In this document: positions 9,001 through 12,000 of the stretch, one piece after another
Layout: every line of letters begins with the position of its first letter
Position numbering within the stretch: the first letter of the stretch is position 1
From: a virus
Lineage: Duplodnaviria > Heunggongvirae > Uroviricota > Caudoviricetes
Length of the DNA: 13,819 nt
Direction: 5' to 3' (one strand)
IMG/VR virus record: IMGVR_UViG_2534681934_000027
Program-made: the position numbers

Positions 9001-12000
9001 CCATAGAGCAGGAACGTCCGAAGGTTGCGCCGGAACTTACCGCAGCCTTTGAAAACTTTATGGACATGCACAGCCCGCAAGCCGTATCAGCTGGCATGGC
9101 ATACGATGGCAGAAACCAGGGCGATGACGGCGACATCGATCGCATACTGAAAACCATCTGAGACAAGGCCGGAGAAATCCGGCTTTTTTACGGGTCCTTC
9201 CTGGAATTATGGCCCGTTACGGGGCGGCGACCTCGCGGATTTTCGCTATTTATGAGCCTTTTCAGGGTGGTGGTGGTGGTTTTGTTGTTTGATCTATCTT
9301 TATGAATGAAAAGGGAAAGATGCAAGCAATACACCAACCTGAAGCAGTAATTAAGTTGGTGTATTAATGAAATCTCATCTGATGAACAAAAAAACATGGC
9401 GAAAAGCTGCCGTGTAAGTGCGACAGCGTTCGACAAGTGGGGAGTAACTCCCGTTGAGCGTAAAGGCCGTGAGGCGTTTTATGATGTTGCCAGCGTGATA
9501 GAAAATAGGGTTAACAATGCAATTAGCCAGCTTATAAACGACAAAGGCGAGATTGACGATGATGAACTTTTACGAGTCAGGATCAGATTACTGACAGCAC
9601 AGGCAGAGGCGCAGGAACTTAAAAACGATCGCGATCGCGGTGACGTGATTGATACTGAGTTTTGCCTGTACGCGCTTTCAAAGCTGGCGAGTCAGATTTC
9701 ATCAATCATGGACAGCCTCCCGCTTACTATGCAAAGGAGCTTCCCACAGATTACCCCCGCCATGCTGGACAGGCTTAAAAGGGAAGTGGTTAAAGCCTGT
9801 AATGCCAGTGCCAGAGTTGCCGACATGAACCGCCCCGGGTTTCCTGGAGAGTGTTTTATCTGTGAACTCAGGCTGCCAGATCATCGTTTCCGATGGAAGC
9901 ATAATAAGCTTTTTCTGCTTCTGCCGGAGGAGTATGGCCCAGCCTTCCCAGCAATCGTCGATTGTTATACCAGTCCACCCACGTTAGTGTGGCCAGTTCC
10001 ACTTCTGCACGGTTTTTCCAGCTCTTACGGTGTATTACCTCCGCTTTGTAAAGACCATTGATGCTCTCAGCCATCGCGTTGTCATACGAGTCGCCTGTAC
10101 TCCCTGTTGATGCCAGTAATCCGGCTTCTTTTAGTCGCTCCGTATAGGCCAGTGACACATACTGAGAGCCTTTATCGCTGTGATGGATGGTGCCAGACGG
10201 ACGACGGGCCCACAACGCCTGCTCCAGCGCATCCAGCACGAATGTCGTTTCCATAGACGATGAGACCCGCCACCCCACGATGTATCCGGCAAACACATCA
10301 ATGATAAACGCCACATAGACGAAGCCCTGCCATGTGCTGACGTAAGTAAAATCAGCCACCCACAGCTGGTCAGGTCGTTCTGCCACGAACTGACGGTTTA
10401 CGCGGTCGCCTGCGGCAACGGCTTTCCGGCTGATGGTCGTACGGACCTTTTTACCCCGGAGAACACCGGCAAGTCCCATAACCGCCATGAGACGTGCCAC
10501 TGTACATCTGGCCACCCTGATTCCTTCCCGTAACAACTGACGCCAGACTTTACGCACACCGTACACCTGATGATTTTCATCGTATACGCGCTGTATCTCT
10601 CTCTTCAGCCAGTCGTCGTGCTGCGCACGGGCACTGCGTTTATCCGGATGATGTCGCTGTTGCTGACAATGGTAATACGTTGACGGGGCAATATGCAGTT
10701 CGCTGCATACCGGTCCGACCCCGTACTGCTCACGCAGCTTATCCAGCAGTGGCATCATTTTTTCCAGAGGCGGTCGAACTCCGCCTTCGCAAAATAAGCG
10801 GAAGCCTGGCGAAGGATATCGTTACTGCGGCGCAGTTCACGATTTTCACGTTCCAGCTCTTTCAGACGCTGACGTTCAGCGCTGGTGAGCCCACCATCAC
10901 CGCCCCCGGTATCCCGCTCATGCTGGCGAACCCAGACACGCAGAGTCTCCGGCGTACAGCCAATCTTTGGGGCAATGGAACAAATTGCCGCCCACTGTGA
11001 GTCATATTCATCCTGACTTTCCAGAACCATACGAATCGCCCGCTGACGGACTTCGGGGGAAAAACGAGTATTTTTAGTCATCCTGTTTACCTCTTTCTCA
11101 GGGAGTTTAGTCTCCAGGATTTCCGGGGCGGTTCAACAACCTCCCACAGATACTGGCTGATTACTTGAAAGAAACAACCGGAAACGTACCGGAAAAGTTG
11201 CTACAGAAGAAAGGCGAGTAACAGACGCGCAATTATTGAACAAAAATGAGAAAGGATCTGATAATGGCATTTTCTGGCTAAAATGCCTCGTGTCAGATCC
11301 TTTCTTTTTTTAATATTTTCATTGTTAAACAGTCTGTTACAGAGAAGAAGATCGGATCTGACTTTTGCCGGAAAATTCTCATAAACAGATAAAAACCGCG
11401 AGGTCGCCGCCCCGTAACGGGCCATAATTCCAGGAAGGACCCGACGACACCAGACTATCAGAGCGATGGGGGCACAATGACAGAAGCCGAACTACTGGGA
11501 TTAATCCGCCGCGTCGCCGGAATCAGCCAGCAGCATGACGAACAGGCCACACAGCCGGACAGCGTGACCGCTGAAAATTATGTGCGTGTTGTAGCGGAAG
11601 TGATGCGCCGTGATGGTATAGAACTTAATGGCGTTGATATGCGCAACATACGGAACCGCGTTCTTGAAATGCTGGCCTACAATCGCCGCGTTGAACTGTA
11701 TCGGGAGAAAGAAAAAATAACGTACCACTGGAAGAAGCCGGAACGGCTGCGGCGGTAACTTGCTGATATTCCCGATAACGCAAAATTGCGCTGGCTACAT
11801 CCTCACATCTGAGGACTGTTAATCAGAAGGCCGGAATATATTCACAAACTACGAAATTTTCGTAGTTTAATTAATGGTCAGATTAATCGCTAACCCGCTG
11901 ATATTTTCGGAAACCTCAATTTGAGGAAGTCGGAAGCGTCACCCTTCATATTCTGAATGGTCATAATGACCACGCAGACCATCAAGGCAACCACAACGAA

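Follow-up and report, generated by a model that had tools for sequence, protein, structure and literature searches.

In phage lambda, the small terminase TerS binds the R sites of cosB through its N-terminal domain and the large terminase TerL through its C-terminal domain. Insertion sequences of the IS629/IS1203 group, which belong to the IS3 family, carry two genes, orfA and orfB, joined by a programmed -1 frameshift and encoding a DDE transposase.

The C-terminus of lambda Nu1 lies in the TerL-binding region, and TerL binding is poor when 30 aa are missing from the end of TerS (PMC9026076). Among the satellites of E. coli, the element named OI-51, CP-933C or Sp7 was regarded as a cryptic prophage, degraded but regulating the LEE (PMC3378721), and has been reclassified as a PICI (PMC6092414). 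[quoted passage not shown] In that island, a packaging-specificity factor, rppA, occupies the terS slot and is needed for efficient transfer, which is reduced by its loss (PMC6739421); the cloned EcCICFT073 cos sites alone are transferred at a low level by lambda and phi80, without any island factor (PMC6092414). With a helper that lacks terS, EcCICFT073 yields <1 transductant per ml (PMC6092414).

We analysed a window of 13,819 nucleotides (the whole stretch of viral DNA examined here), which contains a cos PICI of E. coli of the OI-51/CP-933C/EcCICFT073 type, integrated between roxA and phoQ. Its gene order matched that of EcCICFT073 gene for gene. Pfam matches and the annotation of near-identical islands revealed the traits of a PICI: a size of 10-15 kb, an int gene, an AlpA-type regulator, a primase/helicase module, unidirectional genes, and neither lysis nor tail functions. 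A capsid E-like, a gpD-like and a Nu3-like gene were present, and no large terminase, portal or tail genes were identified in the island. TerL was absent from the island and from every relative inspected, and the same terS module without TerL was found in satellites of other genera. The gene thus sits in a satellite, as originally predicted, and its TerL partner must come from a helper. Among the other genes, we identified RgdR, a 99-aa DUF4222 protein encoded at 3686-3985, upstream of the IS, with an RGD at residues 20-22, as well as a PerC-family gene. A 93-aa ORF located after cos2 had also been considered for RgdR, a position at which polarity of the IS would have mattered, and was ruled out by this assignment. 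Similarly, the island is not SpLE2 of strain Sakai, which is located elsewhere. A 137-aa upstream ORF was rejected as an Rpp protein, because Rpp follows cos1 and this ORF matched the C-terminus of a head protease/scaffold family; a PDB sequence search with it returned nothing relevant.

The small terminase gene of the island, terS, was interrupted by an insertion element. The features of the gene and of the element were as follows:
9367-9825, plus strand: 5' part of terS (Nu1 family), native codons 1-153 and the first base of codon 154
9388-9394, plus strand: poly-A run of seven bases (A7; A8 in uninterrupted alleles), a -1 frameshift in codons 8-10
9823-9825, no strand: left copy of the target-site duplication, ACA, by comparison with empty sites
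9826-11135, transposase genes on the minus strand: IS1203 (IS3 family, IS629 group), intact, exactly 1310 bp
9826-9850 and 11111-11135: terminal inverted repeats of the IS, 25 nt each
9868-10758, minus strand: orfB of the IS, 296 aa, with PF13276 (HTH_21) and PF00665 (rve, DDE integrase core)
10755-11081, minus strand: orfA of the IS, 108 aa, with PF01527 (HTH_Tnp_1)
11136-11138, no strand: right copy of the target-site duplication, ACA, by comparison with empty sites
11139-11221, plus strand: 3' end of terS, displaced by the IS: final 27 codons (NLPQILADYLKETTGNVPEKLLQKKGE) plus stop codon

The inserted element exhibited the features of the IS3 family: a length of about 1.3 kb, imperfect inverted repeats ending in 5'-TG...CA-3', and two overlapping ORFs, an HTH-containing orfA and an orfB with a DDE/rve domain. 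The inverted repeats (TGAACCGCCCCGG...) matched at 22 of 25 positions, with outer ends TGAACC...GGTTCA. The overlap of orfA and orfB lies at an A-rich slip site, GGAAAAAATGATG, and a programmed frameshift, predicted here, is annotated in NZ_AP026097 for DNA identical to both ORFs. The whole element was identical (1310 of 1310 positions) to the copy in NZ_AP026097 annotated as 'IS3-like element IS1203 family transposase', versus 95.2% identity to an O157 copy and 95.2-96.3% to the copies in O157, UTME-3 and CFT073. Following the RefSeq annotation of the identical copy, on which the distinction between the two names rests, the element is classified by sequence as IS1203 and not as IS629 in the strict sense. 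The original description as IS629-like is retained at the level of the IS629 group.

When positions 9826-11138 were deleted in silico, the sequence matched the empty-site alleles of O157:H7 FRIK2455 and of strain 57_142493 over the span compared (cos1-terS-cos2), so the uninterrupted allele expected in related strains does exist. The sole mismatch to both alleles was one base in the poly-A run. As the flanks rejoin exactly into a known empty site, the ACA duplication is real and not a 1-in-64 coincidence; moreover, 3-bp duplications were observed for all five of the other copies of this IS that were inspected. The predicted structure, a 1310-bp IS flanked by a 3-bp ACA duplication, was confirmed at both ends, and the empty site was recovered base for base.

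The extent of the interrupted gene differed from that initially proposed. In uninterrupted alleles, terS is annotated as 'terminase small subunit' and encodes a protein of 180 aa (WP_000835281.1), starting at the ATG at 9367; the ORF start proposed earlier, at 9396, corresponds to Met11 of this protein. The native protein therefore has 180 aa and not 170 aa: in Enterobacter and Citrobacter homologues (about 57% identity), residues 1-10 are conserved at the protein level, and the AAA>AAG changes seen there are synonymous. Counted from 9396, the IS follows 143 whole codons and interrupts codon 144, which leaves 27 codons displaced, in agreement with the number first reported. In the hhalign alignment, the cut falls after residue 153, with D153/N154 corresponding to E167/L168 of Nu1. 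The interrupted ORF gains 78 IS-encoded residues in place of the last 27. The displaced tail is homologous to residues 168-181 of lambda Nu1, plus a 13-aa extension, and contains the motif NLPQILADYL, aligned with LIPGLLSEYI at the Nu1 C-terminus; this motif was common to lambda-type TerS proteins, among them the TerS of the helper in which a relative is embedded. By this homology, the part lost falls in the region that binds TerL in lambda, as had been proposed, where a 30-aa truncation binds poorly (PMC9026076).

A second lesion was found upstream of the IS. Read from the native start, the A7 run yields MKSHLMNKKTWRKAAV followed by a stop, after 16 codons. The A8 state was present in 464 of 467 genomes, and A7 was shared by only one of the 467. 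It may represent either a true slippage mutation or a homopolymer sequencing error; the only other single-base difference from strain 57_142493, the nearest strain, is likewise a -1 change in a poly-A run (6642-6647). As the frameshift lies upstream, removal of the IS alone does not return the native ORF, and the cleanly reconstructable 170-aa ORF of the original prediction could not be upheld. Residues 1-153 were otherwise unaltered, with no substitution compared with intact alleles.

The identification of the split gene as a Nu1-like small terminase was well founded. The protein matched the Pfam family PF07471 (Phage_Nu1) with 82.6 bits (E 3e-23; cutoff, 30 bits), in an alignment that does not include residues 1-32, and phrog_57 (PHROG 57) over residues 1-174 (E 8e-53). 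An hhalign comparison with lambda Nu1 gave 99.9% (E 2e-31; query residues 6-166 versus Nu1 residues 3-180), and the protein aligned with the DNA-binding domain of Nu1 (NKK..A....W..P..G.E..YD.A). With the IS removed, as had been suggested for verification, the protein aligned with the Nu1 family over its full length. The secondary structure in an AF2 model was helix-helix-hairpin-helix; the model itself was weak (pLDDT 61, pTM 0.31, 18-sequence alignment), and a Foldseek search of this low-confidence model against the PDB gave no match at E<=0.001. Likewise, a PDB sequence search with the 180-aa protein gave no match at E<=1, 6HLK included. Judged by these alignments, the terS product is homologous to lambda Nu1 along its full length, and the binding of TerL and cosB is assigned to the satellite TerS by this homology, as putative functions.

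The gene is flanked by two inverted cos sites, with the following elements:
9191-9266, plus strand: cos1, lambda-type cosQ-cosN-I2 segment, left arm of a 76-nt inverted repeat
9267-9289, plus strand: candidate R3-equivalent (cosB) of cos1, GGTGGTGGTGGTTTTGTTGTT, bp 46-68 from the cohesive end
11243-11311, no strand: inverted repeat 3' of terS, 19-nt arms (89%), preceded by an A-run and followed by a T-run
11347-11362, minus strand: R3'-like element of cos2, paired with R3 of lambda in the alignment and reading TCAGATCCGATCTTCT on this strand
11368-11443, minus strand: cos2, inverted relative to cos1, cosN at 11401-11412, right arm of the 76-nt inverted repeat

The two arms of the 76-nt repeat were 91% complementary. 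Two exact lambda cosN sequences were present in inverted orientation, as in EcCICFT073; the 12-nt cohesive end of cos1, GGGCGGCGACCT, lies at 9222-9233. The cos1 segment aligned with EcCICFT073 cos1 and with lambda, and was 80-82% identical to the cos regions found in lambdoid phages, of which one is annotated 'cos site'. From bp 1 of cosN (9222) to the start of terS (9367), the distance was 145 bp, with equal spacing in relatives, and terS directly follows in the phage-like order cosN-cosB-terS. The block at 9267-9289 was conserved between TerS satellites of the E. coli and Enterobacter types, with diverging flanks, and differed in the rppA-type island of CFT073, which has CACCACCACCAC where the terS island has GGTGGTGGTGGTTTTGTTGTT. 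Its position, close to that of lambda R3 at bp 50-65 (PMC9026076), makes it a candidate R3-equivalent. At the other end, cos2 exhibited the full phage-style layout R3-I1-R2-R1 with TCAGATCC cores, i.e. a phage-type cosB; three TCAGATCC matches were found in the window versus 0.31 expected, two of them in the repeat at 11243-11311 (R2'/R1'-like, belonging to cos2). This repeat was not retained as a plain terminator only: the lambda alignment matches it with the R2/R1 pair of cos2, and it probably also acts as a terminator, so that both readings are kept. In a search of a phage collection for a helper with a cos2-type cosB, no full match was found, the best covering 63% at 76% identity.

Searches for the junction between IS and terS gave no match among 5426 complete E. 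coli genomes, the encoding contigs or the protein collection (exact-protein look-up). The intact terS allele was present in 487 of the 5426 genomes, O157:H7 included. In the strain carrying the identical IS copy, the island differed by no substitution over 12.5 kb. Taken together, the identical IS, the substitution-free 12.5 kb and the junction seen nowhere else make the insertion look recent, in line with the original prediction, and we infer that it is both recent and strain-specific. Other IS insertions were observed in int (O157), in pepT next to the island (57_142493), and in terS at another site (UTME-3); the latter, considered as a possible second instance of the same junction, lies at nt 324 of terS and arose independently. 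A role of IS629 in the diversification of O157 is documented (PMC3271280, PMC9943667). EHEC strains often carry an IS-excision enhancer, which promotes IS629 excision (PMC9943667), so the terS lesion may be reversible.

Overall, we consider it likely that a recent insertion of IS1203 in codon 154 of the 180-codon terS gene entails loss of TerL coupling, of island-specific high-frequency packaging and of helper interference. The satellite TerS would bind the island-specific cosB of cos1 through a putative N-terminal winged-helix domain, and its Nu1-like C-terminus would recruit the gpA-type TerL of the helper; helper capsids would then package concatemers of the island, with terminase diverted from the helper. 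With its last 27 residues replaced by 78 IS-encoded ones, the product would no longer couple properly to TerL, and given the A8>A7 frameshift, the truncated TerS may not be made at all. Island-specific high-frequency packaging and helper interference would thereby be lost. All the functional data behind this scheme were obtained in lambda and in the sister island that carries Rpp. The insertion probably cripples helper-mediated packaging of the island. Immobilisation, which had been proposed as the outcome, is plausible and probably partial: cos1 and cos2 are kept and cloned EcCICFT073 cos sites are transferable without an island factor, so 'immobilised' overstates the effect. Low-level transfer may persist if helper terminase acts on cos1 or, in particular, on cos2, whose cosB is of the phage type. 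Moreover, the residues lost comprise only 14 Nu1 equivalents and the 13-aa extension, fewer than the 30 aa deleted in lambda, and residual TerL binding is therefore possible.

Other histories of the locus would assign the insertion a different weight. If A8>A7 came first, the IS later entered a pseudogene and had no functional consequence. The premature stop, the near-universal A8 state, and the accumulation of IS insertions in and around the island (int, pepT, terS of UTME-3), which fits relaxed selection, all agree with this order of events. However, one sequence cannot give the order of the two events, A7 may be a homopolymer error, Met11 at 9396 could permit reinitiation, and the lack of substitutions in the rest of the ORF means that any decay is very young; we regard a gene that was already dead as rather unlikely. 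That the IS was placed here by the collapse or misplacement of a repeat during assembly is hardly credible. Copies of IS629/IS1203 are numerous in EHEC genomes (matching places per genome: median 4, maximum 51), repeats of this sort are well known to cause misassembly, and the exact junction was seen nowhere else; nevertheless, both junctions are exact, removal of the IS joins the flanks into the known empty site without a fault, and a misplaced repeat would not create the IS-typical 3-bp duplication.

The remaining alternatives concern Rpp proteins. Without its TerL-binding tail, a truncated TerS would resemble Rpp in consisting of a DNA-binding and an oligomerisation domain, and it might keep a function by forming mixed oligomers with a Nu1-like helper TerS, resulting in interference with the helper or even in redirection to cos1. 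The C-terminal 30-40 residues are missing from the Rpp proteins of sister islands, which act through the helper TerS (PMC9026076, PMC6739421); the satellite TerS closely resembles Nu1 in its central region, and its residues 1-153 are intact. Nonetheless, we find this improbable, given that a foreign 78-residue tail is fused on, that the upstream frameshift, if real, blocks normal translation, and that Nu1-type oligomerisation domains of differing specificity would have to co-assemble; Rpp, for its part, uses another C-terminal fold for dimerisation and contacts TerS at its DNA-binding domain, and the terS product shows no sequence similarity to RppA. It is more improbable still that the terS product is itself an Rpp-type redirecting factor, to which the TerL-contact argument would be irrelevant. 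Its gene does occupy the slot of EcCICFT073 rppA, between inverted cos1 and cos2 on the same backbone and at the same chromosomal site, but BLASTP to RppA gave an E of 3.4 and hhalign a probability of 0.06%. In addition, RppA matches phrog_57 only over winged-helix residues 7-47 (1-174 for the terS product), Rpp proteins have 139-154 aa versus 180, and the terS product has a Nu1 C-terminal tail.

Returning to the preferred reading, in which the insertion damages a TerS that couples to TerL, the event is an ordinary IS knockout, a case of strain-specific gene decay in a known kind of satellite. The insertion serves mainly to mark the strain and to illustrate how satellites decay in EHEC-like E. 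coli. With the packaging factor lost, two virulence regulators, RgdR and the PerC homologue, would tend to become fixed in the chromosome. The intact allele is a common TerS-type variant of the EcCICFT073 family, and natural terS alleles such as that of the window provide ready material for packaging experiments. A broader model, which we put forward only tentatively and consider somewhat doubtful, is that terS islands hijack the helper by a strategy unlike that of the characterised Rpp islands: a complete Nu1-type TerS replaces the helper TerS, with cos1-cos2 as an exchangeable cassette and cos2 as a second helper entry. If so, the island TerS would bind the island-specific cosB at cos1 and recruit helper TerL directly, and islands of the terS type could be transferred even by a helper without terS. 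The segment between the cos sites would be a specificity cassette, with either rpp or terS depending on the island, and cos2 would let in helpers whose packaging specificity differs; the IS allele of the window would represent a natural knockout for this model.

Compared with lambda gpNu1, the terS product showed 38% identity with full-length homology and the same order of N-terminal HTH region, central helical region and C-terminal tail, and gene Nu1 likewise lies just 3' of a cosN with an identical 12-nt cohesive-end sequence. The two proteins differ in the recognition region (VSATAFDKW in terS versus ASIRTIQNW in Nu1), in about 20 residues of the Nu1 linker that are absent from the terS product, and in its 13-aa C-terminal extension, which is not found in Nu1. 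Moreover, the cosB sequence of cos1 is unlike that of lambda, and the large terminase gene adjoins the small one in lambda, whereas there is no TerL beside the satellite terS. With OI-51/CP-933C/Sp7 of O157:H7, the island shares a backbone of 99.4% identity; the O157 strains inspected have an intact terS and carry an IS at the 5' end of int instead. The IS629/IS1203 polymorphisms of EHEC involve the same IS group, 3-bp duplications and strain-specific gene inactivation, as in the window, the junction itself being new relative to the 5426 genomes. RppA, RppB and RppC of EcCICFT073-type islands (PMC6739421; PDB 6HLK, 6HN7) share the island family, the roxA/phoQ site and the cos1-cos2 slot, and presumably the role of packaging-specificity factor at cos1; these proteins have no TerL-binding tail and use the helper TerS as a bridge, whereas the terS product is expected to bind TerL itself. 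Finally, the TerS-S of SaPI1 and SaPIbov1 is also encoded by a satellite and pairs with helper TerL to redirect packaging (PMC6739421), but it belongs to an unrelated TerS family of a pac/headful system and works with Ppi, unlike the Nu1 homologue described here, which is of the cos type.

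The terS gene, encoding the small terminase of the island, was interrupted by an insertion sequence (IS) with the following organization:

9823-9825 and 11136-11138: ACA target duplication, directly before and directly after the IS
9826-11135: IS element of 1310 bp, with 25-nt terminal inverted repeats matching at 22 of 25 positions
Minus strand, within the IS: 108-aa ORF (HTH_Tnp_1) and 296-aa ORF (HTH_21/rve), overlapping each other

In silico removal of 9826-11138 yielded a base-for-base match, except for one poly-A base, to the uninterrupted cos1-gene-cos2 locus of both E. 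coli O157:H7 FRIK2455 and strain 57_142493. Moreover, 3-bp duplications flanked all five further copies of the same IS, present in the four loci inspected. Together, these observations confirm the insertion, its coordinates, the ACA duplication, and the displacement of 27 codons, as described in the original prediction. The element displayed every testable feature of the IS3/IS629-IS1203 group. It was identical at 1310/1310 positions to the copy interrupting pepT in strain 57_142493, whose transposase is named "IS3-like element IS1203 family" in RefSeq; identity was 95.2% with the O157 copy and ~96% with the UTME-3 and CFT073 copies. Based on the annotation of the identical copy, IS1203 appears to be a better name than "IS629-like", although the latter is acceptable.

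The split gene proved, as predicted, to be Nu1-like. Uninterrupted alleles are annotated as "terminase small subunit" and encode a 180-aa product, which scored 82.6 bits against Pfam Phage_Nu1 (cutoff 30), matched PHROG 57 (terminase small subunit) over residues 1-174, and was found as an identical sequence on at least 1000 contigs of a public collection. The family profile aligned to residues 3-180 of lambda gpNu1 with 99.9% probability and 38% identity. In this alignment, the IS is positioned between D153 and N154, corresponding to E167 and L168 of Nu1; the displaced segment starts with NLPQILADYL, aligned with LIPGLLSEYI of Nu1, and continues with a 13-residue extension. The satellite protein has the central region and tail of Nu1, as well as the sequence characteristics of the Nu1 family. 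No structural confirmation of its putative winged-helix fold was obtained. As expected for a satellite, terS had no neighboring gene for the large terminase (TerL), which was absent from the whole island.

The restored 170-aa ORF, previously considered clean, was correct in its 27-codon count and insertion site, but not in its start or its integrity. It begins at ATG 9396, at native Met11. The ten residues before it, MKSHLMNKKN, are kept as protein in Enterobacter and Citrobacter homologues that are only ~57% identical, with Leu as residue 6 and synonymous differences in the two Lys codons; this places the native start at ATG 9367, giving 180 aa. At 9388-9394, the window carries A7 instead of the A8 of intact alleles, a frameshift with which reading from the native start gives MKSHLMNKKTWRKAAV followed by a stop. 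A7 was shared by only 1 of the 467 complete genomes carrying this segment. Without the IS, the window showed no substitution relative to strain 57_142493 over 12,506 nt, and only three indels:

1279-1318: a 10-bp tandem repeat, differing by one unit
6642-6647: A6 for A7, in a ribosome-binding-site spacer
9388-9394: A7 for A8, in terS

The two A-runs were thus the sole single-base differences from this strain and both were −1 in poly-A, which suggests either a homopolymer sequencing error or replication slippage. For the terS run, a sequencing error and slippage, which would represent a true second lesion, are about equally likely; the IS knockout possibly sits on top of a frameshift. The run at 6642-6647, A7 in two other strains, lies in the spacer that separates the ATG (6650) of a small hypothetical gene from a GAGG Shine-Dalgarno sequence. 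The 10-bp repeat (ACAATGAGCA-like) lies between int and the HTH regulator and has one more unit in the window than in 57_142493, a minor copy-number polymorphism.

The insertion had been proposed to be recent, in agreement with the identity of the IS to the copy in the near-isogenic strain and with its substitution-free flanks. The uninterrupted allele was present in other strains, with at least 80% of the uninterrupted cos1-terS-cos2 segment detected in 487 complete genomes. The same IS-terS junction was absent among 5426 complete genomes, and the predicted fusion proteins were absent from the protein collection. The only apparent junction match, in UTME-3, was rejected, as it corresponds to an independent insertion with a GCG duplication. 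The same IS group has independently struck the island or its edge, with its own 3-bp duplication each time:

Locus L001 (O157:H7 FRIK2455), 3072-4381: IS in the 5' end of int
Locus L002 (57_142493), 1001-2310: IS in pepT, adjoining the island
Locus L003 (UTME-3), 3352-4661: IS in terS, after nt 324

In EHEC, IS629-group elements are known to drive gene inactivation, and an IS-excision enhancer promotes their excision (PMC3271280, PMC9943667); in some backgrounds, the terS lesion may thus be reversible.

The island, located between roxA and phoQ, is O-island 51/CP-933C/Sp7 of O157:H7 (PMC3378721). It shares its family and its chromosomal site with EcCICFT073, the model Gram-negative PICI, and showed the genomic characteristics of an EcCICFT073-type cos PICI. 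Its genes are ordered as follows:

Integrase, AlpA-type HTH gene, Icd-like genes
3686-3985, plus strand: RgdR, 99 aa, DUF4222, RGD at residues 20-22
RepA-type helicase, SSB, PerC-family regulator (about 6252-6524, plus strand)
Lambda E-like capsid gene and gpD-like decoration gene
8748-9161, plus strand: 137-aa protein resembling the C-terminus of a head protease/scaffold
3' end: cos1, terS, cos2, then a 93-aa ORF

The RgdR orthologue and the PerC-family regulator, both 5' of the IS, seemed intact. The 137-aa "hypothetical" protein, encoded 3' of the decoration gene, matched PHROG 53 (head maturation protease; E 5e-9) in its C-terminal part. This C-terminal region doubles as the Nu3 scaffold in lambda, so that capsid, decoration, and scaffold-like proteins may all be encoded by the island. 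A 314-aa ORF without a Pfam match was open at 1851-2795 (plus strand), where RefSeq annotates a partial Icd-like pseudogene and a short Icd-like gene in the same DNA of other strains. Three GC-rich hairpin and T-run copies (80-100% identical; AGCCGGAG.AATCCGGCTTTTTT), at 6527-6556, 6890-6919, and 9163-9192, resemble repeated intrinsic terminators, and the third ends just 5' of cos1.

An inverted repeat of 76 nt (91% complementary; 9191-9266 and 11368-11443) harbored two exact lambda cohesive-end sequences in opposite orientations. The order cosN-(145 bp)-terS is phage-like. At the lambda R3 position 3' of cos1 (9267-9289), a block, GGTGGTGGTGG(T)TTGTTGTT, was conserved across genera, between E. 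coli and Enterobacter-type satellites (window and loci L007, L008, L009, L010, and L013). The inner side of cos2 carried a complete phage-style, lambda-like cosB (11243-11412, minus-strand orientation), with three TCAGATCC cores versus 0.31 expected and an AT-rich stretch between them at the position of the lambda IHF site:

11354-61, minus-strand orientation: core aligned with lambda R3
11293-300, minus-strand orientation: core aligned with lambda R2
11254-61, minus-strand orientation: core aligned with lambda R1

An identical cosB was not found in any phage of the collection.

The N-terminal domain of Nu1 is responsible for cosB binding and its C-terminal region for TerL binding, which is poor once the last 30 residues are removed (PMC9026076). 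We propose that the satellite TerS would bind cos1 and directly recruit the TerL of the helper. The replacement of its last 27 residues by 78 IS-encoded residues would uncouple DNA recognition from TerL recruitment, and the island would consequently no longer be preferentially packaged or interfere with the helper. A strong drop in island transfer, rather than its abolition, would be expected, because the cos sites persist, and lambda and phi80 transferred cloned EcCICFT073 cos sites at a low level even when the island factor was absent (PMC6092414). The apparent immobilization initially put forward is reasonable but overstated. The insertion is a real, strain-specific IS knockout of a packaging gene in a known satellite family, and an ordinary event; a more interesting possible reading concerns the intact terS. 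No experimental work on this cos-type TerS was found in the literature searched.

Like the window, EcCICFT073 has two sites named cos1 and cos2, both shown to be functional, with cos1 required for efficient transfer (PMC6092414, PMC6739421). However, the slot between them is occupied by rppA (144 aa) rather than terS, and loss of rppA significantly lowers EcCICFT073 transfer (PMC6739421). Sequence comparison detected no similarity between the window TerS and RppA, which matches the small-terminase PHROG over the winged-helix region only. Rpp proteins are devoid of the TerL-binding region, and the helper TerS has been proposed as the bridge they need (PMC9026076); apart from its position, the window TerS lacked the features of Rpp proteins. 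The cos sites also differ: the CFT073 rppA-type island carries CACCACCACCAC at the R3 position of cos1, apparently the same repeat as in the window but on the opposite strand, and its cos2 cosB region is unlike that of the window.

The capsid-decoration-cos-terS module, never associated with a large terminase, was also found in other satellites, namely helper-embedded ones of Enterobacter and Citrobacter and an E. coli satellite (locus L015) inserted in a prophage portal gene; this prophage itself encodes a lambda-like TerS. The ~57% identical terS homologues, on Enterobacter/Citrobacter-type contigs (L010-L014, about 4000-6510), belong to satellites inserted into lambdoid prophages, within the capsid E gene; these relatives and L015 have cos1 only, without cos2. 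SatelliteFinder already counts the small terminase among the core PICI components, with the capsid gene preceding terS (PMC10085698), so that a Gram-negative PICI bearing TerS is of a known kind.
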